IMG/VR virus record: IMGVR_UViG_3300036766_000686
Location: 27,711-91,710 of that record
Origin: a virus
Strand: one strand, 5' to 3'
DNA length: 64,000 nt
Part shown: positions 27,222 to 64,000 of the stretch, one piece after another
Layout of the letters: each line of letters starts with the position of its first letter
How positions within the stretch are numbered: position 1 is the stretch's first letter
Program-made: the position numbers and the translations under genes
The notes under the pieces: generated by a model
Database searches by the model: none
Told to the model about the DNA's origin: nothing
The model's input: the letters and a program-made list of their open reading frames with translations, nothing else

Positions 27222-28366
27222 GCGAGAATCTTCCTTGCTGTAAAATCACAAGTGTACCCGCTATCCCTGTCGAACTTGTGAGCCACACGAGAGAAATAAT
27301 AGTCCCCAGTTAAAGACATACTCGGCAAGGTGAGAGAGTGGGTTTGCCTTGCGCGTAAGTCCTCGATTCCGATCACCGACCCACGCCCCATCACAAAATT
27401 TTCCCGCTTGCGCTTGAACCATTCCTGCGCCCACACCTTCATGTCCACGGCGCTCGAAAACTTTTTATCCGTGATAACGTCCACAGCGTAATCCCCAAAC
27501 ATCAACCTTACCACCGCCCCTGCCGTCGTGTGTGTTTCGTCAACGACTTTGGAAGGGTCGCCTTGGTACTTGACGTCTGGAGCGTTCGCTAGATCGTCGA
27601 ACTCCTCCACGTAAAGTTCATCGGTTAGAGGGTTGCGGGACTGGACTTGCAACCGAGTGACCGCGCCGGTTAGCGCAAGCTCGGGCCGGAACTCTAACAA
27701 CGAACACGATCCCACCGCGTGTTCGAAAGTATATTTTTTGTCCTGTATCATCCCGCTTCGGTTGTCGGGATTTACAAAGTATAGACACCATCCAAGCACC
27801 TCGTTGTAATCGACCCAGAATAAATACCCCACCAAGTTCGCCAACCCTTTTACGAATTCGAAATCGGACATGTCCGACTTTTGAGGAGAGGTATTGCGGT
27901 TGGGCGTTGGGTCCACAAACGCCTTGAAGTTATAAGGAGCGCAAGCCGCAATCCGTTCAATGGCTTGGTCGATCTGGAATACCTCGAACTGAGTTATTGA
28001 TTCCTCTTGAGGACGAGCGTCCTTCGGCTTGTTTTGGGTCATTAGAATATCCTTTGTATACCCCTTGATGGTGATTGTCGGCATCCCATCTTGGACAAAG
28101 GATAGTTCGGGTTTGCAGATTATTACCCGCCCGATAAAAGACAACTGTGTGCCGTAACCGCACCAAATATCTAGTTCGTTTCCCGGCTGCCATAGCGGGG
28201 AATCGCATAGGATATAATCTGGGTTGGCAAGCGTCACGCGAGCCTCGTCCACTACCCCGTCCGCACTCTCGTACTCGACGGACTGAACCAAGTCGGAAAT
28301 CCCCGTTCCGAGTTTGTTGCCCGCAACTGCTACTTCGAAATTCGGGGCGAGGTCATCGTTGCTCAT
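27218..28366 (-). CDS. Baseplate hub (late control D-like)
   Basis: GNELDIWCGY, SDFEFVKGLA, GDYYFSRVAHKF..GYTCDF. Confidence 0.85.
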   Translation of the reverse strand: MSNDDLAPNFEVAVAGNKLGTGISDLVQSVEYESADGVVDEARVTLANPDYILCDSPLWQPGNELDIWCGYGTQLSFIGRVIICKPELSFVQDGMPTITIKGYTKDILMTQNKPKDARPQEESITQFEVFQIDQAIERIAACAPYNFKAFVDPTPNRNTSPQKSDMSDFEFVKGLANLVGYLFWVDYNEVLGWCLYFVNPDNRSGMIQDKKYTFEHAVGSCSLLEFRPELALTGAVTRLQVQSRNPLTDELYVEEFDDLANAPDVKYQGDPSKVVDETHTTAGAVVRLMFGDYAVDVITDKKFSSAVDMKVWAQEWFKRKRENFVMGRGSVIGIEDLRARQTHSLTLPSMSLTGDYYFSRVAHKFDRDSGYTCDFTARKILA

Positions 28367-57268: not shown

Positions 57269-57530
57269 TGATCGGTTCCTCCGTTGTTGAAGTCTTGCCG
57301 TGTTGCTCCATAAAAGCGTCTTGTTGCGTCTCCAATTTTAGGTCCAACTCCTCGAATCTGTTGGCATCAAATAGCAAGCTAAGGCACTTAACGTATTGGG
57401 TATCCGTCATATCGCCTCGTTCCTTCAACACCTCTGCCGATAGTTCAAGTATACGCTCCACCGTCCACGACGGGTCGCGGGTGGATTCCTCAAGGCGATA
57501 CGCCGCCGTACCTTTTTTGGGATCGCTCAT
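57261..57530 (-). CDS. Hypothetical acidic protein
   Basis: ATGA overlap with MuF stop. Confidence 0.6.
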   Translation of the reverse strand: MSDPKKGTAAYRLEESTRDPSWTVERILELSAEVLKERGDMTDTQYVKCLSLLFDANRFEELDLKLETQQDAFMEQHGKTSTTEEPINE

Positions 57531-60500
57531 AGCACCCTCAATTTCGACAGTGCGTCCTGTAACGCTACCTTTTGCTCCCTCGTAAGCTCAGCATTTCCCG
57601 GCAACAACTCGATAAACATTCTAGGCGCATTGTAGTGGGACGCGATGGTTGAGGCAGCGCTGGTACTCATCAGGTGGGAGGCTCGCTCGATTTCGGTCCA
57701 CGCTCGTTCCTTGGCCCACCCCGTCGCCTTCGTGACCGAATTAACTAGATCGTCGATTACCTGACCGTAGGAACGTGACATTGTAAAAATAGATTCCCCG
57801 GCAGGGAACTTGTGCCCAGTAATATCGACAAGAATTTTCCGAGCCGTGATCTCCGTGGATGCCTCACACAACGCCTTTCCTTCGAAATTGTAAGCGCTGG
57901 AAAGGAGACGATTGGAACCGTGGACGGACTCGTGAATGAAGGTAAAAAAGCCCCCATCCCTCATTGTCCCGTTACTTGTTGCTCCTATGCTCGCGGACAT
58001 ATCATCAAAGCGCTTGCCCCTGAGCGTGATCCCCTCGAACCCGTCTCGCCATCCGTTATATTTTCGCGTCCGAGCGTTCCTCTCTATCAAGTCCCTCCGC
58101 GCACCTCCAGTGCGGCTAGGCTCTAAAGACAAACCCCACTGTTTCTCAAAAAAGTCCTCCGTGTTTCGACGAAACTGCGGGAAATCAAACTTGCTAATTT
58201 TTTTCTTCTTATTGCTCGCAAGCGTTTGGTCCCACAGCGTCTTAAACTTCTTGACCTCTTGTTGCAAAACTTCAGGAGCAGCAGGAGTAGGCAAAAGGGG
58301 AATCGGACGCGGAGGAATATAGTTCGACAAGGGTGCGGCGGGGATTACAGCAACAGGCGCCTCAACAGGGACGGCGGCGGGTGCTTCAATAGGTAAAGCC
58401 ACAGGAGGTTCGATTGGGATGGAAACGGGGGGAGCGATCGGGGGTGCTGGAGGGGGGGCAACCGGAGGACGAGGGGCGACAACTGGAGTGCCGGGGATCC
58501 TCGATACCACATCAATGCTACAACGACAGTTATGTACCGCAAATAGTTGTTCACCAACTAAGAAACTCTCATCCTCTTCGACGGTAAGATTCCAGACCAC
58601 TCTATGACTGGAAAATCTTTGAATAAACCCAATAGGAACAAACCCAATTTCTGAAAATGAGAAGGGGTCACATAGATTAAGTGTTCTGGAAATAGCTCTT
58701 GTATAAGATGATCCCTCGGTTTGAACCATCCTTTGACCTCTATCCAAATTTTCCGTCTCGGCAAAAAGAAATCCGGAAGGTATGTTAAGTCCGGGGTCAA
58801 ATAGAAACGTTGGCACTCGTAAAGAAAAGGTTCCTGCAAGGTTAATAATTCTTTGGCTAACTTGTCTTCCCAAGTGCTTCGCAATCTTAACGTACCTTGC
58901 CAAGGTGTCTCCAACGTAGACCAACGCCCGTGCCCAGGCTTTTTGCCAAACATGGGATTTTTTGCACCGGAAAATTGTCCCTTCCTCGCCCCACCTCTGG
59001 GACCACAACCCAATCTCTTCCATCGTTTCGTTCGACAGCCCAGCGAACACGTAAAAATATTTTCTGAATGACACGGAGTCCGCCAAAACTTTTTTCCACA
59101 TTCGGAACAAGCAACGTATTCCCCTTTTATATGGGATATTCTCTTGCACTCGCTGGAACAATAGTGAAACCGATCCTTCTGAAAAGAAGGAATCAAAACT
59201 ATTTTCCCACATTGAGCGCAACGCGCTTGAACCTTCGCGGAGGCAGGCCCCCTCATGGAGCCAGCGCGCGCCCGATTCGCCAACATATATTCGCGAGAAC
59301 AAGACTTCTTCGTTCCGATTCGCGACGGCATTACCATAATGATCTTGCCGCAATTCGCGCAATGGGATGTTACACGGGTTAACTTTTCCAACGAGATCGT
59401 CCTCGATGACTGCACTAAAGATATTACACCCGTCACGGCGAATCAAATAAGGATGGTCCGCTGTCGAAATTATCCCCTCGATGTTTATGAAATCCCCAAG
59501 AAAATCCCTGGACATCACGTTAGAAACTTTTTTCCAACGCAACTTGTGAGTTAAAACCTCGTCTCCAACGCGGATGCTACTTATAGGAATCAAACCTCGA
59601 CGGGACAAGACAGGGGTAGACCCGATAAAACAGTTTAGGTGGAAGGGGGGCAACGCGTTCCCATTCTCTTCCAACTTGCTTGTCAAAGAAGGACCCATCG
59701 GTCCTCGCGCTCCCCCGACAAGCGACAGCGTATCGGATATTGATAGGAAGGGTTGTATTGTCCGTATGCTGGTAGGGTTTTTCGCGCCCAGTATTCGGTT
59801 CGCCAAAGCGCTTCCATCTGCGACCTTGAACCGCTTCCCGTCCAATATCTCGCACCTATCACAGGTCCGTTGGTCTTTCGGATTGACGATTCGATACTCC
59901 GTATACCCTGCGCGCCGCATGACGTTCACACTCGAAATCGCCCGAGACGTCGTTGCGGCGTTGCTCACAAGCCCTTCGAAGTATCGAGCTTGTGTCCCGT
60001 TAAATCCCTTCGGTACGGTGACTTGTGATAGCGTTCGCCCCACCAAGCGCTCCAGCGCCCGCCCCGCCACTTCGTTTGACCTACCTTGCTCCATCACAAA
60101 CTTTTTCGTGGTGGAGGCGATAGCGTTGCCCACGTTTGCCGAGTAATGCTCTCCGATCCAATAAGTTTGATGCTTACCCAAGACGTTCATCGCCGCCTTG
60201 TCTTGCAACCCAAAACCCACACGCAAATTAGGAGGGGGCTCGGCTTTCGTGACCGTCCCCGTGTCCCACTCGCCTATCGGGTACTCAATGGGAGCCTTCA
60301 TCTTGCCCGATATGCGAGCCTGCATTACCTCGAAGGACAGTTTGTAGATCGCCCGCATATCCCTAGTAAATCGTTCCTCGACGATTCCCGCCCACTGTTC
60401 CATCGTCTTTCCTATGCCATTGGAAATCGTCTCCGCGTCCTTATCCGTAAGATCGCCCTTCATCGCCATGAAGCGTTCCCGCGCTTCCCTCGCTGCCTTT

Positions 60501-60658
60501 TTCGCAAGCTGTTCCCACTGAGCCAGCAGGTACTCGCGGAGTTTCGTCTCAATACGAGCGGACTGGGCTAACGCATCCACGCCAATCGACTTAGCGACAA
60601 GATCGTCCAGCAGCCTTACCCCATCGTAGAGGGCATCAATTGTGAGCGTGTCCCGCAT
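57527..60658 (-). CDS. Head morphogenesis protein (SPP1 gp7/Mu gpF) with intein and C-terminal HExxH domain
   Basis: DQRTCDRCEILDG, PPFHLN|intein|CRC; follows portal; Pro-rich linker then FIHESVH..E. Confidence 0.88.
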   Translation of the reverse strand: MRDTLTIDALYDGVRLLDDLVAKSIGVDALAQSARIETKLREYLLAQWEQLAKKAAREARERFMAMKGDLTDKDAETISNGIGKTMEQWAGIVEERFTRDMRAIYKLSFEVMQARISGKMKAPIEYPIGEWDTGTVTKAEPPPNLRVGFGLQDKAAMNVLGKHQTYWIGEHYSANVGNAIASTTKKFVMEQGRSNEVAGRALERLVGRTLSQVTVPKGFNGTQARYFEGLVSNAATTSRAISSVNVMRRAGYTEYRIVNPKDQRTCDRCEILDGKRFKVADGSALANRILGAKNPTSIRTIQPFLSISDTLSLVGGARGPMGPSLTSKLEENGNALPPFHLNCFIGSTPVLSRRGLIPISSIRVGDEVLTHKLRWKKVSNVMSRDFLGDFINIEGIISTADHPYLIRRDGCNIFSAVIEDDLVGKVNPCNIPLRELRQDHYGNAVANRNEEVLFSRIYVGESGARWLHEGACLREGSSALRSMWENSFDSFFSEGSVSLLFQRVQENIPYKRGIRCLFRMWKKVLADSVSFRKYFYVFAGLSNETMEEIGLWSQRWGEEGTIFRCKKSHVWQKAWARALVYVGDTLARYVKIAKHLGRQVSQRIINLAGTFSLRVPTFLFDPGLNIPSGFLFAETENLDRGQRMVQTEGSSYTRAISRTLNLCDPFSFSEIGFVPIGFIQRFSSHRVVWNLTVEEDESFLVGEQLFAVHNCRCSIDVVSRIPGTPVVAPRPPVAPPPAPPIAPPVSIPIEPPVALPIEAPAAVPVEAPVAVIPAAPLSNYIPPRPIPLLPTPAAPEVLQQEVKKFKTLWDQTLASNKKKKISKFDFPQFRRNTEDFFEKQWGLSLEPSRTGGARRDLIERNARTRKYNGWRDGFEGITLRGKRFDDMSASIGATSNGTMRDGGFFTFIHESVHGSNRLLSSAYNFEGKALCEASTEITARKILVDITGHKFPAGESIFTMSRSYGQVIDDLVNSVTKATGWAKERAWTEIERASHLMSTSAASTIASHYNAPRMFIELLPGNAELTREQKVALQDALSKLRVL
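58529..59632 (-). mobile_element. Intein in MuF (368 aa), no in-frame endonuclease
   Basis: Starts CFIGSTPV..IPISSIRVGDEVLTH; block B STADHP; ends VVWNLTVEEDESFLV..AVHN followed by Cys+1; removal restores PPFHLN-CRC. Confidence 0.92.
58558..59436 (-). CDS. PD-(D/E)XK endonuclease with three zinc-finger repeats and NUMOD3-like motif, nested in the +1 frame of the MuF intein
   Basis: CxxCGK..CS..C x3; GAKNPMFGKK; RSTWE..YE..YLPDF..WIEVKG; alternative start TTG 59391 with GAGGA 8 nt upstream. Confidence 0.85.
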   Translation of the reverse strand: MTGVISLVQSSRTISLEKLTRVTSHCANCGKIIMVMPSRIGTKKSCSREYMLANRARAGSMRGPASAKVQARCAQCGKIVLIPSFQKDRFHYCSSECKRISHIKGEYVACSECGKKFWRTPCHSENIFTCSLGCRTKRWKRLGCGPRGGARKGQFSGAKNPMFGKKPGHGRWSTLETPWQGTLRLRSTWEDKLAKELLTLQEPFLYECQRFYLTPDLTYLPDFFLPRRKIWIEVKGWFKPRDHLIQELFPEHLIYVTPSHFQKLGLFLLGLFKDFPVIEWSGILPSKRMRVS

Positions 60659-62384
60659 CGTTGTCGGCGCCCTCAGTGTGCTCCCCGTCTACCTCTCGAT
60701 TCCAATCTTCCTCAAGTTGCAATCGCAACGCCTGCAACCCTTTGACGATCTGCGCCGCCGCACTGTCGCCCCCGAGTATCATCCCCGCCGCCTTCAACGC
60801 GGTCACGGTCTGTCCGGGCTGTGTTGTGTCGCCTAGATTTTTAACCGCCTCTGCCATCGTGAGACTGAATGGAATGTCTGGGTCGAACCCCTCCTTGAAC
60901 GGGGGCAATTCGTCCCCGAGAATTTGCTCCAGCACTTGTCGAGCAATACGCGGGGTCATTCCACCTGTGCGCTCCGACCCACTTAGTATGCTTACCAGTT
61001 CCGCGTTGTCTGTCGTGTTCGGGCTGTTGGACTTGAATTGATGGTACAAGGCTTGCAGGTGCGGAAAGAGAATACGATTAATAAAATCGTCGAACTCATC
61101 CCGCGCGGGGGCAAATACCTGCTCATCCGCGAGCCTTCTTGCCGTGTCCGCAACGTTACGCGAATAGTCGCTGGAGCGTCCAAGAAAAATGGGCGGGATA
61201 CGAAACGCCACGCGCACCTTCACTTGGTTCGCCTCACTGTACTTCTGGAAAAGGGCGTCGCTTTGTTGCGCGGCGGAAAGAGGTTGCGCTTGAATCTTCG
61301 CCGTCCCCATCTCCTCGCCTTCCATTCCCAACGGCTCGGCTTCGATTACTAGGACTTTACTTCGGTTATCGTCTCCCTGTAATCGTTCGAACATTTCCTT
61401 AATCCGATCGATTGAATCGGGGGTCAAGGAACCATTGCTGACCATCACCAACAAGGAAGGAACGTTGTTATTGTTGAAGGTGACGTAATTGACCTCGCTC
61501 GCCTTGCGATCCCCGAACATATCCACGAGGCACCCCACGTAACGAGGCATCCCGTAAGGCGACCTCGACGAATAGAGCTTCCAGTGGATCACTTCGTTGG
61601 CTTGTTTCGCAGGAGAGCAGGTAACGATCTGTCCCGCGGGAACTTCTTGCCCCGTCTCGTTGTCATAAACGCGCGGATCCCCGAACTCCTTAAACCAACG
61701 TTTTTTGTAACCTCCCGATACCGCTCCCGACCTGATCGCAAGATTGCGCTGGACGAACTTGCGGAAACGAATCATGCACGGTTTCGCCACGATCGTGAGC
61801 GACCCGTCCGGCTGTATCACGTATTGAGGAACGTTGACACGGTAAGGGTCGGATTCGGTCGGGGTAATACGAACTTGGTAAGACTTCATGTGGGAGAAAT
61901 AAACGATCTCCCCCTTCCCGTTGCGCACCACTTCCCAATACGCGTTCCCCGTCGCCTCCAGGTCGTGTCGAGTTTTTACCCTAAGCGTTCGAAACGAATC
62001 CGAGGGGCCGCCCCCGTAGAGGAAAAAGTTTGTAAGGCGTATCTTCTCCGCTTTTACTTTTGCTATCAGGTCTTGACCCACTTCGGGTAGATGGAGATTG
62101 ATGCGATTAACTAAACGATGCCCGAACCCGTCAATATTCTGTGCCATCGTGTCGATACAAGGTTCAAGCTCGGTGGAGTTCTCGGGCATCGTTGCGAGGG
62201 CGAATTGATCAAAGGGCGGTTCGATCAACAACCCCTCTCGAATCATCGCGGTAAAGGGGTCGTCCTCTGCGACCTGCTTTGAGGTTCCGGGATCAAGTTC
62301 GGGAGCAGGAGGCACGGAAGGGTCAATCGGAAAGAGCTTTGCCACTATTCGTTGTGATCTTTTTCTGTCGCTATTGAGTCCCAT
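60636..62384 (-). CDS. Portal protein (PBSX-like)
   Basis: DLEATGNAYWEVVR, NEVIH, YGMP, FNNNNVP, FRIPPIFLG. Confidence 0.92.
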   Translation of the reverse strand: MGLNSDRKRSQRIVAKLFPIDPSVPPAPELDPGTSKQVAEDDPFTAMIREGLLIEPPFDQFALATMPENSTELEPCIDTMAQNIDGFGHRLVNRINLHLPEVGQDLIAKVKAEKIRLTNFFLYGGGPSDSFRTLRVKTRHDLEATGNAYWEVVRNGKGEIVYFSHMKSYQVRITPTESDPYRVNVPQYVIQPDGSLTIVAKPCMIRFRKFVQRNLAIRSGAVSGGYKKRWFKEFGDPRVYDNETGQEVPAGQIVTCSPAKQANEVIHWKLYSSRSPYGMPRYVGCLVDMFGDRKASEVNYVTFNNNNVPSLLVMVSNGSLTPDSIDRIKEMFERLQGDDNRSKVLVIEAEPLGMEGEEMGTAKIQAQPLSAAQQSDALFQKYSEANQVKVRVAFRIPPIFLGRSSDYSRNVADTARRLADEQVFAPARDEFDDFINRILFPHLQALYHQFKSNSPNTTDNAELVSILSGSERTGGMTPRIARQVLEQILGDELPPFKEGFDPDIPFSLTMAEAVKNLGDTTQPGQTVTALKAAGMILGGDSAAAQIVKGLQALRLQLEEDWNREVDGEHTEGADNDAGHAHN

Positions 62385-62392
62385 TTTTCCTC

Positions 62393-64000
62393 CTACAACA
62401 ACCCGAAGCTCGGACGTTCTCTACGCGGACGACGGATCCCGCGCTTCGCCGCTCGCAACGCGTGGTCAAGGCTATCGAACATATCCCCAGTAAACCGACC
62501 GTCTGGGAAGCGCACTAGGTGGTCAATTGCTCGCATCTGGACGGCACGCTTGAAAAATACCCGCTTGTTTTCAAACAACGGAGCGATCTTCCATGCCCTC
62601 AAGAGTTTGTCCTGAGAGGTCGGGATTTTTTCTACGACCATGCCCGGGCGCAACTCTCGAACTAAGTCTGCCAACAACTCTTGGTACTGGACTGTTTCAA
62701 TGCCCACGCGCAACGGAGTCCAGCGGTCGTAAAACTCTAGGACTTTTTCGGGCTGCTTGGTCGCCTTCAAGTGGTCAAGGTAAAAGTCCACAAGATAAAC
62801 TCTATAATCATCCTTCAAGATCGACCCGAGCAACCCGATCACGGAAATCGAAAACATCGAATGGCGCTCCTCGGCTTGCGCCGCTAAGTCCACGCCCATG
62901 TATAAGCGCAACTCTGCGTCCTTCGGGAAATCCGCTTCCCCTATCTGCTGGCAATCGTCGTAGGCAAATACCTCGCCCTTCATCGCCTCGGTATCACACT
63001 GGTATTGGGAGTTTCCAGAAATAAGCACGCGCCCATTACGTCGCGTTATCAAGGTTTCATTAGGAACGGAAAAACAAACAATTTTGCCGTCGTAATCTAC
63101 CTCTTGGGTTCGTTCAGGAAGATAGGTCAGCACCTCAGCATAATGCCCATAGGAGTCATAACTAGGGTTCCACATTGGGTTAGAAAAAGTATCGCATCGG
63201 CTGGACAAAACGATACCAACCCTCAAACATAAATCATGTAAATCGTCATTAAGTTGTTTTGATATTGTCGAATACCAAAACGAGCCCTCACTTCCCGCCG
63301 GGTTACGACTGCCATCCCCTGATACCAGCGTATCCAAAAATTCTTCAATCTCAATCGAAGGTAAACAAAAAACTATTCTAGGAACTTTCTTTTCTTTGCT
63401 ACACGTTCCACAGTTCCGACGCAACCACGACCAAAATCCCATGTGAGCAAACCCAAAATGGACATACGGAGAATGATTCCTGTTAACCCACGGCTCGATT
63501 CCTAGTTGCCGAATCGTTTCGATCATATCATCGGCAATAGCGCCCTCCTTCTGAGAGAAAGTCACCGTCCCTCGCACAGGGAAAGTGGTATGTCCTTCCG
63601 AAACAAAGTACCCCAAGAATCTTACGAAAGGTCGAATCTTCAACTTAAGGTCCCCTACGTGCACTGTCTTAGGTAGCTTGCGATTCGAATAGCACCGAGG
63701 GGAATCTTTTATACAAAGGTATTCACGACGTTTTCCTCGCCAAATCGTGGTCGCGGGAAACTGAACCCTTCCGGTACGTGTGCTCTTTGCCTTATCGAGT
63801 TTATTCGCAGTCACGAATTTCCAAGTATCTTGACGCTCATCACCGCCACGTAACGCTCGGGTAAGAAAGCGATGATCCACGGTGACTAAAGCATCAACGC
63901 TCCTGCTCTTAAGGTGAAGCATAGACCCACGGTAGCGTTTTATTAATCGACATAAAGGACGCTGAAATTCCAACACCCATTTTTTTTGATTGAAGGTCGC
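62393..64000 (-). CDS. Terminase large subunit (5' end outside window), intein-containing
   Basis: Nuclease domain YMGVDLA, IGIE-like VGIETVQYQ, DKLLRA, FP..DMFDS; frame open to window edge. Confidence 0.88.
   Translation of the reverse strand, partial: ATFNQKKWVLEFQRPLCRLIKRYRGSMLHLKSRSVDALVTVDHRFLTRALRGGDERQDTWKFVTANKLDKAKSTRTGRVQFPATTIWRGKRREYLCIKDSPRCYSNRKLPKTVHVGDLKLKIRPFVRFLGYFVSEGHTTFPVRGTVTFSQKEGAIADDMIETIRQLGIEPWVNRNHSPYVHFGFAHMGFWSWLRRNCGTCSKEKKVPRIVFCLPSIEIEEFLDTLVSGDGSRNPAGSEGSFWYSTISKQLNDDLHDLCLRVGIVLSSRCDTFSNPMWNPSYDSYGHYAEVLTYLPERTQEVDYDGKIVCFSVPNETLITRRNGRVLISGNSQYQCDTEAMKGEVFAYDDCQQIGEADFPKDAELRLYMGVDLAAQAEERHSMFSISVIGLLGSILKDDYRVYLVDFYLDHLKATKQPEKVLEFYDRWTPLRVGIETVQYQELLADLVRELRPGMVVEKIPTSQDKLLRAWKIAPLFENKRVFFKRAVQMRAIDHLVRFPDGRFTGDMFDSLDHALRAAKRGIRRPRRERPSFGLL
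63011..64000 (-). mobile_element. Intein in terminase with in-frame LAGLIDADG endonuclease (N-terminus outside window)
   Basis: Block B VTVDHR; FLGYFVSEG and LVSGDG; ends IVCFSVPN..LISGN|SQYQ. Confidence 0.88.

Follow-up and report, generated by a model that had tools for sequence, protein, structure and literature searches.

Inteins with out-of-frame endonuclease genes

Inteins overlapped by a nuclease gene in another reading frame are of a known kind (Gorbalenya, 1998; Gosselin, 2025; Phillips, 2026). The cyanobacterial dnaX intein harbors a LAGLIDADG endonuclease that is read out of frame (Gorbalenya, 1998, as described in a citing preprint), for which secondary invasion of a mini-intein has been proposed (Phillips, DeSimone & Gogarten, bioRxiv 10.64898/2026.09.14.751524). 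Inteins whose homing endonuclease (HEN) gene is out of frame are also found in phages, and free-standing phage endonucleases were proposed as their origin (Gosselin, 2025). The hosts in that study include minor capsid (MuF-type) proteins, with non-canonical HENs only, and the quoted minor-capsid cases (seven inteins) carry an anti-sense LAGLIDADG HEN. Two related arrangements have been described. In fractured genes a free-standing GIY-YIG or Vsr-like endonuclease gene lies between the halves of a split intein (Dassa et al., 2009, PMC2677866), while the ShiLan insertion in a phage methylase gene hides an HNH endonuclease in another reading frame (Arsenault, Gosselin & Gogarten, 2025, PMC11855218).

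The window analyzed here is a 64,000-nucleotide stretch of viral DNA (positions 27,711 to 91,710 of IMG/VR record IMGVR_UViG_3300036766_000686). An initial annotation, made from the letters of the window alone, placed an intein at 58529–59632 of a MuF gene with a nuclease in its +1 frame, and these coordinates turned out to be exactly those of the intein. Like the phage inteins of Gosselin (2025), it is contiguous, sits in a phage gene and has a nuclease in another frame of the HEN region while the intein frame stays open. Unlike them, its nuclease is a T7-endonuclease-I-like PD-(D/E)XK enzyme with three zinc ribbons rather than endonuclease VII-like, and the hosts are uncultured phages of non-actinobacterial type. 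Both it and the dnaX intein have overlapping frames, a nuclease frame under purifying selection, a relaxed overlapped intein frame and mini-inteins at the same site, but the dnaX case concerns a cellular host gene and a LAGLIDADG nuclease, whereas here a phage structural gene and a PD-(D/E)XK fold are involved.

As in the window, the endonuclease gene of the fractured genes is inserted into a phage-gene intein at the place of the HEN; the 3′ end of the nuclease gene overlaps the C-terminal intein part, and NUMOD3 is N-terminal to a restriction-endonuclease-fold domain. In the window, however, the host frame is unbroken and the intein is contiguous and predicted to splice in cis. The ShiLan insertion likewise has an out-of-frame nuclease and a host-frame reading without stops, yet it lacks a splicing domain, whereas the window has intact intein blocks and a Shine-Dalgarno-like motif. 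What is new here is the nuclease family and the variety of layouts at a single MuF site. No earlier report of a T7-endonuclease-I-like PD-(D/E)XK nuclease with triple zinc ribbons in inteins was found in the literature searched.

The MuF-like gene and its intein

The MuF frame runs unbroken from 60658 to 57527, and the host gene is not split into two ORFs. The gene and the parts of its product are as follows.

60636–62384, portal gene (PF04860, E 1.5e-18), in synteny with the MuF-like gene
57527–60658, minus strand, MuF-like minor head protein gene encoding a 1043-aa precursor, with the portal gene immediately upstream
59633–60658, minus strand, N-extein, ending in PPFHLN
58529–59632, minus strand, predicted class-1 intein of 368 aa in frame 0, from Cys1 to His-Asn, followed by Cys+1 of CRC
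59369–59632, minus strand, Hint N-terminal lobe (about residues 1–88) with blocks A and B, mostly outside the overlap
58634–59368, minus strand, frame-0 "shadow" linker of about 245 aa, the nuclease gene read in the intein frame without stops
58529–58633, minus strand, Hint C-terminal lobe (residues ∼334–368, based on alignment) with blocks F and G (...VVWNLTVEEDESFLVG...VHN)
57527–58528, minus strand, C-extein, starting with CRCSIDV and continuing with a Pro-rich linker and a C-terminal domain

The N-extein matches PF04233 (MuF) with 23.8 bits (E 7.7e-5; cut-off 29.6), and the MuF-like protein matches phrog_115 "minor head protein" (E 2e-5). In the related locus L163 the MuF domain scores above the cut-off (53.5 bits), and the end of the domain (model position 107 of 112) is the exact start of the intein. 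In two unrelated metagenome phages, L009 (GC 45–49%) and L010 (GC 58–62%), the MuF protein terminates 8–10 residues past the intein. On the record of the window's own phage the long MuF ORF is the sole ORF given for this region. The GC content of the window's N-extein is 55.4%. That of the intein is lower (45.6% against 54–55% for the exteins), a difference that was listed in favor of an origin by invasion.

Cys1 of the intein is residue 343 of the precursor, and the terminal His-Asn pair is residues 709–710, directly before CRC. The residues C1, T57, H60 (block B TxxH), H367, N368 and Cys+1 do not vary between the window, L009 and L010, which points to a class-1 intein with intact splicing residues, and splicing itself is predicted. 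The N-lobe of the intein matches Hint_2 with 19.9 bits (E 0.001; cut-off 28.4), and a related intein in locus L108 lies above this cut-off with 36.3 bits. The Hint N-lobe is 40–43% identical to those of L009 and L010 and can be aligned to the mini-intein of L133. It also matches other inteins (P0010–P0013) and hits proteins with PF13403 or PF14890.

The initial annotation had described the intein frame over the nuclease as stop-free but unrecognizable. This description holds: the overlap has no stop, no homologs and no confident fold. Two homology searches with the middle of the intein frame returned only the sequence itself or Hint N-lobe matches. The structure predicted for the intein frame has a mean pLDDT of 34.7, with 66–76 at residues 1–40 and values below 50 at residues 55–342; the low values are weak evidence for disorder, because only 3 sequences went into the prediction. 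The DNA of the Hint C-lobe is also covered by the tail of the nuclease ORF, which is not conserved. In the nuclease relatives P0001 and P0014 this tail keeps "SGI", which could go together with a block F (VWNL) that overlaps it in the −1 frame.

A conserved nuclease gene in the +1 frame

The +1 frame contains the following features.

59400–59404, minus strand, Shine-Dalgarno-like GAGGA, 8 nt 5′ of the TTG codon (59389–59391)
58558–59391, minus strand, nuclease ORF of 277 aa from TTG 59391, with its stop at 58558–58560
59287–59361, minus strand, zinc-ribbon module 1, CANCGK...CSREY, with Tyr in place of the fourth Cys
59146–59220, minus strand, zinc-ribbon module 2, CAQCGK...CSSEC, complete
59035–59109, minus strand, zinc-ribbon module 3, CSECGK...CSLGC, complete
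58939–58968, minus strand, NUMOD3-like half motif GAKNPMFGKK, sub-threshold for PF07460
58651–58881, minus strand, PD-(D/E)XK nuclease domain of T7 endonuclease I type, matching phrog_9019 and PDB 1m0d

The ORF spans intein residues 81 to 358, and alignment with the mini-intein puts it at the junction of the two lobes. The frame is open from 59442, and an alternative GTG at 59436 (292 aa) lacks a Shine-Dalgarno motif. A search for homologs gave 1193 representative proteins at E ≤ 1e-3. The closest relative, P0001 from a 2219-bp ENA contig, is 49–51% identical over 90% of the length.

All the short motifs quoted in the initial annotation (GAKNPMFGKK, RSTWE, YLPDF and IEVKG) are found in the ORF, whereas two of its domain assignments held in part. 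It listed three CxxCGK...CS..C repeats; modules 2 and 3 are complete, and the Cys residues of module 2 are invariant across 8 relatives, but module 1 reads CxxC...CSxxY. The corresponding place in P0001 reads CSREC. The NUMOD3 assignment stands as a half motif only: it covers model positions 16–27 of PF07460 and scores 13.1 bits (E 0.095; cut-off 20.4), while at the homologous position a free-standing relative, L156, lies above this cut-off (26.5 bits).

T7 endonuclease I (gp3; PF05367; PDB 1m0d and 2pfj) resolves four-way junctions as a small domain-swapped dimer. It has the same E...PD...ExK motif as the window nuclease, but neither zinc-ribbon nor NUMOD3 modules. The nuclease domain of the window matches phrog_9019 (E 8e-15) and T7 endonuclease I itself (PDB 1m0d, E 2e-3, 38% identity over ∼80 columns), with all of the E/D/E/K residues aligned. 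Numbered from GTG 59436, these catalytic residues are E190 (RSTWE), D222 (PDF), and E233 and K235 (IEVKG), and they are invariant among 50 homologs. A search of the window ORF against PF05367 (Phage_endo_I) gave nothing at E ≤ 0.1, and relatives reach 18.4–25.8 bits (cut-off 29.1). We therefore file the nuclease as endonuclease-I-like within the PD-(D/E)XK superfamily and not as a member of the PF05367 family.

The AlphaFold2 model of the nuclease has a mean pLDDT of 87.4, with 96–98 in the PD-(D/E)XK domain. Analysis of model residues 152–264 with VIA-align 2 gave PD-(D/E)XK matches with Z-scores of 8–9.9 overall, among them I-Bth0305I (Z 9.6, rmsd 2.7, 85 residues aligned), Bax1 (9.3), TnsA (8.2) and Vsr (8.0). 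Foldseek with the whole multi-domain model gave no match in the PDB at E ≤ 1e-3. The ORF is a real and conserved gene with a triple zinc ribbon, a NUMOD3-like motif and a PD-(D/E)XK domain.

Start signals and selection on the two frames

The initial annotation had proposed GAGGA-N8-TTG as a plausible internal start. The motif is present in the window, and L009 and L010 have counterparts at the equivalent position (GGAG-N7-ATG and AGAGG-N9-ATG, respectively). The three loci thus each have a Shine-Dalgarno-like motif 7–9 nt 5′ of a start codon, which falls on intein residue 81, 83 or 87, and in each of them the +1 frame has a stop 9–19 codons 5′ of the proposed start. At the other end, the stop of the nuclease gene is 29 nt from the end of the intein in the window; the corresponding distances for L009 and L010 are 20 and 47 nt. 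The start signals suggest that the nuclease has its own internal start at TTG 59391, with GAGGA 8 nt upstream. Two counterpoints concern the codon of the window, which is TTG rather than ATG, and the ribosomes elongating in frame 0, which would mask an internal Shine-Dalgarno motif.

The intein frame of the window has no stop in the overlap, against an average of 14.1 when the nuclease ORF is reshuffled among its synonymous codons. For L009 and L010 the expected numbers are 18.2 and 10.2, respectively, and again none is found. None of 3000 synonymous shuffles was stop-free in any of the three loci, and an open alternative frame was not seen in any of ∼60 free-standing nuclease homologs.

The three loci are too divergent for dN/dS, and purifying selection on the nuclease frame was judged from bit scores and from identity by codon position. 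In pairwise comparisons the nuclease frame gives 112, 80 and 158 bits, while the middle of the intein frame gives 39, 23 and 45 bits. Within the overlap the lowest identity (0.37) is at position 3 of the nuclease codons, which is position 1 of the intein codons, whereas in the Hint N-lobe outside the overlap it is at position 3 of the intein codons (0.30–0.39). Both frames are under selection, and the nuclease is more constrained than the overlapped intein frame, as judged from these comparisons.

Relatives at the MuF site and elsewhere

L009 and L010 carry the same nuclease family, also in the +1 frame, in an intein at the same MuF site as in the window. The junctions read PPPYHGY|C...SHN|CRT in L009 and PPPYHFR|C...THN|CRT in L010. 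Four lineages, only 33–50% identical to one another, have an intact nuclease ORF.

The initial annotation had suggested looking for mini-intein relatives at the MuF site and for free-standing relatives of the nuclease, and both were found. L133 and L134 have a 132-aa mini-intein at the same site. Free-standing nucleases of identical architecture are encoded in L155/L156, L157/L235, L162 and L191, in agreement with the earlier remark that this architecture is typical of free-standing phage homing endonucleases; in L156 the gene is flanked by tail-fibre-like genes. The claim that a free-standing nuclease gene invaded a mini-intein is consistent with both sets of relatives, and we infer this direction of events.

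Split inteins of the type described for fractured genes (PMC2677866) also occur at this MuF site. In L163 and P0080 the MuF protein, the N-part of the intein and an endonuclease-I-like nuclease are fused in frame; in P0080 the nuclease is C-terminal, following the intein N-part, and no intein C-part comes after it. The split inteins of L110 and L112 have an HNH nuclease fused to the intein C-part instead. Among the 150 best representatives P0080 was the one long protein examined, and a nuclease set in frame between the two intein lobes was not seen, three mid-sized matches (457–517 aa) aside. L172 was considered as a further nested case and rejected, as every frame is open in this high-GC contig.

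Among the cultured phages of INPHARED only matches to the nuclease domain were obtained, at 21–27% coverage, and none was nested. The cultured-phage relatives are annotated as "T7-like endonuclease" or "Holliday junction resolvase", the latter also for relatives in PHROG and GenBank.

A probable composite selfish element

We consider it probable that the 1104-bp MuF insert is a composite selfish element, made up of a class-1 intein and a homing-endonuclease gene in the +1 frame of its center. Ribosomes in the MuF frame would make a precursor in which the two Hint lobes (∼1–88 and 334–368) are joined by an unstructured linker of ∼245 residues, which would merely be the nuclease gene read out of frame. 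Protein splicing would then excise the entire insert and join PPFHLN to CRC, so that the MuF domain regains its conserved end. Internal initiation at TTG 59391 would give the 277-aa protein, whose zinc ribbons and NUMOD3-like motif may bind DNA while the T7-endonuclease-I-like PD-(D/E)XK domain cleaves it. Presumably, the nuclease cleaves MuF alleles that lack the intein in co-infecting relatives, close to the HxN|CRC codons, and recombinational repair would copy the intein and the nuclease gene together (homing). Stops in frame 0 would be purged by selection because MuF is needed for head assembly, and homing would preserve the nuclease frame. Internal initiation, splicing and cleavage specificity are predicted features of this scheme, and the element probably arose when a free-standing nuclease gene invaded a mini-intein.

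The contig was assembled from a metagenome, and a pair of compensating indel errors could have put an in-frame nuclease domain of the intein out of frame; an assembly indel was also a scenario that the initial annotation saw as fatal to its reading. The same +1 relation is, however, found in three independent assemblies that differ in sample and GC content, and because of this an artefact is effectively refuted and has next to no probability. A frame 0 without stops, where 10–18 are expected, would moreover be an unexplained coincidence if it were never translated there, and every one of the nuclease ORFs comes with a start codon, a Shine-Dalgarno motif and a close upstream stop of its own. 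The start signals are conserved as well, which also speaks against a decaying relic, that is, a once in-frame endonuclease knocked out of frame and now a silent pseudogene, with selection on the MuF frame only. Decay of the endonuclease once it is fixed is predicted by the homing-cycle model, and module 1 of the window has lost or lacks its fourth Cys. Yet the ORF is intact in the four lineages despite their divergence, with invariant catalytic residues; the nuclease frame is the better conserved of the two, and position 3 of its codons is the variable one; and an in-frame form with both lobes was not seen among the 150 best representatives (the three 457–517 aa matches aside). We regard a relic as quite unlikely.

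The function of the nuclease could also differ from the one proposed. It is presumably a homing endonuclease, but this role is assigned by analogy, because T7 endonuclease I is a junction-resolving enzyme and relatives are annotated as Holliday junction resolvase. T7 endonuclease I is nearest to the catalytic domain by sequence, cultured-phage relatives carry the labels given above, and the gene lies within a terminase-portal-MuF module, all of which would suit a domesticated DNA-maturation enzyme that resolves branched DNA and is merely lodged in a head-gene intein. However, the triple zinc ribbons and NUMOD3-like motif form an architecture of free-standing homing endonucleases that T7 endonuclease I lacks, and free-standing relatives occur at unrelated sites, such as that of L156 among tail-fibre-like genes. 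The same catalytic domain at the same MuF intein site in split form (L163) fits site-specific homing, and the lower GC of the intein suggests horizontal arrival, which makes domestication unlikely. In place of internal initiation, ribosomes in the MuF frame could undergo programmed +1 frameshifting and make the nuclease as a fusion with the N-extein and the Hint N-lobe. L163 and P0080 encode such an in-frame fusion, so in relatives a fused product is viable. No shared slippery motif was evident in the three loci, however, all of which have the Shine-Dalgarno motif and start codon, and any frameshift would be confined to a very short stretch because of the +1-frame stop 9–19 codons 5′ of the starts. 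Frameshifting thus seems very unlikely to us, and we retain the composite element with internal initiation as the preferred explanation.

Possible nuclease capture at a single MuF site

The inteins at this MuF site can be arranged by the position of their nuclease.

Sense, +1 frame, overlapping: the window, L009 and L010 (endonuclease-I-like)
Antisense: L108 (DUF559/MTES_1575)
In frame: L105 (DUF559)
Split, nuclease on the intein N-part: L163 and P0080
Split, nuclease on the intein C-part: L110 and L112 (HNH)
Empty mini-intein: L133 and L134

It is possible, though we say so tentatively, that the HxN|CR(C/S/T) end of the MuF domain is an arena where related Hint domains captured at least three nuclease families in every possible topology. 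If so, the series would provide natural intermediates for a "splicing-first, endonuclease-invades-later" origin of bifunctional and split inteins, and zinc-ribbon endonuclease-I-like proteins would be a homing-endonuclease family not recognized before. Since five forms (overlapping, split, antisense, in-frame and empty) occur at one site, the invasion model can be tested both comparatively and experimentally.

Inteins with an overlapping nuclease gene have a bearing on how bifunctional and split inteins arose, and their hidden dual coding is missed by gene callers, as at the MuF ORF of the window. With its modular DNA-binding part, the nuclease is a candidate for a site-specific enzyme, and the predicted tolerance of the intein for a foreign linker of ∼245 residues would be relevant to intein engineering.

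A quick IQ-TREE analysis of the nucleases does not separate one from several origins of the nested arrangement. In this tree the window groups with P0001 and P0014 (support 99), and L009 and L010 fall in a neighboring group with weak support (84). Finally, a scan of genome contigs identified one free-standing relative, which is located on the chromosome of Rubrobacter marinus.

The head module and its MuF intein

The window derives from an IMG/VR virus record of 91,710 bp and carries a head module of the standard type, with terminase, portal and MuF-like genes all on the minus strand.

Features of the head module in the window
62393–64000 (window end), minus: terminase large subunit; Terminase_6C follows an intein match
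60636–62384, minus: portal gene (PF04860, E = 1.5e-18), adjoining the terminase gene
57527–60658, minus: MuF-like open reading frame (ORF) of 1043 aa, with sub-threshold MuF matches
59632–58529, minus: class-1 intein of 368 aa (MuF residues 343–710), with a Cys start, block B TxxH and a His-Asn end, then CRC
59442–58558, minus: nuclease ORF in the +1 frame, open from 59442 to its stop at 58558

The MuF part before the intein (N-extein) matches PF04233 with a sub-threshold 23.8 bits, and the MuF ORF matches phrog_115, 'minor head protein' (E = 2e-5). The interval 58529–59632 proposed in the initial annotation coincides exactly with the intein boundaries, from the Cys start to the His-Asn before CRC. 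An in-frame LAGLIDADG intein is also found within the terminase large subunit (62393–64000, minus; PF14528, E = 5.8e-7), so that the head module holds at least two inteins, one canonical and one non-canonical.

Past the intein, the MuF ORF runs on for ∼330 residues (57527–58528) with a Pro/Ala/Val-rich linker and another domain. In L009 and L010, two metagenome phages with the same nuclease layout, the MuF gene ends 8–10 residues past the intein, and hence the extension is an addition peculiar to the window's phage.

The intein reading frame (frame 0) had been described as stop-free but unrecognizable, and this holds: it contains no stops, and homology searches with its middle part gave nothing beyond the Hint N-lobe. 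Its structural model has a mean pLDDT of 34.7, with residues 55–342 below 50, which is a weak sign of an empty reading since the prediction was built from only three sequences. Over the nuclease DNA, the intein frame is an empty reading.

A nuclease gene in the +1 frame

Every motif quoted for the +1 ORF in the initial annotation is present. Three zinc-binding modules of the form CxxCGK...CS..C could be identified as described, except that the first lacks the fourth Cys (CSREY; CSREC in the close relative P0001), and the proposed NUMOD3 is a half-motif that stays below threshold (E = 0.095). The ORF matches phrog_9019 (E = 8e-15) as well as T7 endonuclease I (PDB 1m0d, E = 2e-3), in the latter case with an alignment that includes all four catalytic residues (E, D, E, and K). 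A search of 1.84 billion representatives gave 1193 homologs at E ≤ 1e-3, nearly all of 120–360 aa, a length typical of free-standing proteins. In an alignment of 50 sequences the catalytic residues do not vary, and the model that AlphaFold2 built from this alignment has a mean pLDDT of 87.4 (96–98 in the nuclease domain). According to VIA-align 2, residues 152–264 of this model have a PD-(D/E)XK fold (I-Bth0305I, Z 9.6; Bax1, 9.3; TnsA, 8.2; Vsr, 8.0). The +1 ORF is a genuine gene.

The overlap recurs and both frames are maintained

A metagenome scan with the nuclease gave 66 loci, each of which was checked by script for open alternative frames. Only in the two closest, L009 and L010, does the nuclease ORF lie wholly inside a long open frame, and the two frames are offset as they are in the window. 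Each of the long ORFs is a MuF-like gene whose intein occupies the window's MuF site (slashes mark intein boundaries): PPPYHGY/C...SHN/CRT in L009, after a portal gene, and PPPYHFR/C...THN/CRT in L010, where the upstream gene is not visible because the contig starts within the MuF gene. L009 and L010 are far apart in GC content (45–49% and 58–62%), and the three nucleases share only 33–36% identity among each other.

Synonymous-codon shuffles of the nuclease ORF lead one to expect 14.1, 18.2, and 10.2 intein-frame stops in the window, L009, and L010, respectively. None was observed in any of them, and no shuffle was stop-free (0/3000 in each). Scores between the loci are 112, 80, and 158 bits in the nuclease frame against 39, 23, and 45 for the overlapped intein-frame segment. 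Within the overlap, nuclease codon position 3 (intein position 1) is the least conserved (identity 0.37). The Hint N-lobe, which is not overlapped, shows the normal pattern, with intein position 3 the least conserved (0.30–0.39). The higher scores and the variable site at its third position show that the nuclease frame carries the constraint; as the intein frame is nevertheless stop-free, both frames are maintained. The nuclease frame is kept for its protein and the intein frame only for its openness. The overlapping layout is neither an artefact nor chance, and an assembly indel, named at the outset as a possible refutation, is excluded, as L009 and L010 show the same frame relation.

In each of the three nuclease ORFs, a Shine-Dalgarno-like motif lies 7–9 nt upstream of a start codon, which sits just past the final strand of the Hint N-lobe.

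Putative internal starts of the nuclease
Window: GAGGA-N8-TTG (59391), intein residue 81
L009: GGAG-N7-ATG, intein residue 83
L010: AGAGG-N9-ATG, intein residue 87

The TTG had already been put forward as a plausible start, and its counterparts at equivalent positions speak for it. The nuclease frame is closed by a stop 9–19 codons ahead of the putative starts. A longer start in the window, GTG at 59436, has no Shine-Dalgarno motif, and the TTG is also the better fit to the N-terminal end of P0001. At the other end, the nuclease stops 20–47 nt ahead of the intein end, so that its tail, which is not conserved, shares DNA with blocks F and G.

Proposed mechanism and origin

From these features we infer an intein with an internally initiated nuclease. 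Frame 0 would yield a precursor in which a disordered linker of ∼245 residues connects the two Hint lobes, and splicing is predicted to restore ...PPFHLN-CRC.... Internal initiation would give the nuclease protein, whose zinc ribbons and NUMOD3-like motif may bind DNA and whose PD-(D/E)XK domain would cut intein-less MuF alleles; repair of the cut allele would then copy the element. The data fit less well with an artefact, with a silent relic, with a domesticated junction resolvase or with a frameshift fusion than with this internally initiated nuclease. The observation made in the initial annotation is thus confirmed, and its interpretation is supported.

That interpretation had a free-standing gene invading a mini-intein, and relatives of both kinds were found. 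L133 and L134 have a 132-aa mini-intein (PPLHPN/C...VHN/CRC) at the window's MuF site, which can be aligned with the N- and C-lobes of the window intein, leaving the nuclease region as an insert between them. Free-standing nucleases with the full architecture exist, such as that of L156, located between tail-fibre-like genes (NUMOD3 above cut-off with 26.5 bits; Phage_endo_I, 25.8 bits). A further case, and the only match in species-representative genomes, is on the Rubrobacter marinus SCSIO 52915 chromosome (2965600–2972175; L235, also L157), where the relative is free-standing, 254 aa long and has matches of NUMOD3-like and endonuclease-I-like type. This locus is probably a prophage, because an IMG/VR virus record matches it at identical coordinates. 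Among the 156 fetched loci with the nuclease domain, a Hint lobe lies upstream of it only in the window, L009, L010, and L163.

The GC content of the window intein is 45.6%, against N- and C-extein values of 55.4% and 53.6%, whereas the inteins of L009 and L010 are just 1–4 points below their surroundings, which points to a later arrival in the window's phage. Together with the mini-inteins and free-standing relatives, the intein GC is compatible with invasion of a mini-intein by a free-standing gene, the direction that we infer, as well as with the model given by Dassa et al. (2009) and Gosselin et al. (2025). A quick nuclease tree did not separate a single from a repeated origin of the nesting.

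Other layouts at the MuF site

An intein with an overlapping out-of-frame nuclease is a published layout, reportedly proposed by Gorbalenya in 1998. Described cases include an out-of-frame LAGLIDADG endonuclease in a dnaX intein (bioRxiv 10.64898/2026.09.14.751524), and the host proteins of such inteins include minor capsid proteins (bioRxiv 10.1101/2025.01.02.630785). Also known are a hidden HNH within the insertion of a phage methylase gene (PMC11855218) and fractured genes with split inteins (Dassa et al., PMC2677866). Neither an intein-associated T7-endonuclease-I-like nuclease nor such a spread of topologies at one MuF site was found in the searched literature or cultured phages.

Like the mini-inteins, the further layouts at the window's MuF site come from a scan with the MuF-intein alignment. 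In L105, a zinc ribbon and DUF559 nuclease are in frame with the intein. The L108 intein (L108:3016–3969) has a frame-0 middle without Pfam match beyond the Hint N-lobe, and on the opposite strand (L108:3157–3849, minus) lies a 230-aa HTH and DUF559/MTES_1575 nuclease (43 bits, above cut-off), an antisense nested endonuclease. L110 and L112, contigs of different samples with 99.9% identity in this region, represent a split-intein form: a portal-MuF fusion (L110:745–3294) stops after the intein N-part, and the next ORF (L110:3291–4001), beginning at an ATGA overlap, joins a zinc ribbon, an NPMFGK-type motif and HNH to the intein C-part and to a C-extein starting CRC....

L163 (L163:343–3360) and P0080, a related protein, are portal-MuF fusions in which the intein N-part, at PPLHIN/C, is followed in frame by an HTH, NUMOD3 repeats and the window's type of endonuclease-I-like catalytic domain, then a stop. 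The MuF domain of L163 passes the Pfam cut-off (53.5 bits) and ends at the intein start. A separate small ORF (L163:3336–3563) encodes the intein C-part (..VYNLGVAEDMTYF..VHN) and a C-extein starting CRS.... The frame of this ORF is −1 with respect to the nuclease, which matches the 3′ arrangement seen in the window. L163 is a fractured MuF gene with the window's nuclease family. P0080 has an additional HNH intein within its portal part. The MuF genes of L133 (L133:1–3924) and L134 seemingly contain two inteins: besides the 132-aa mini-intein there is one that ends ...LVAHN/CPFCQQMDG, at the conserved Cys motif of the MuF domain.
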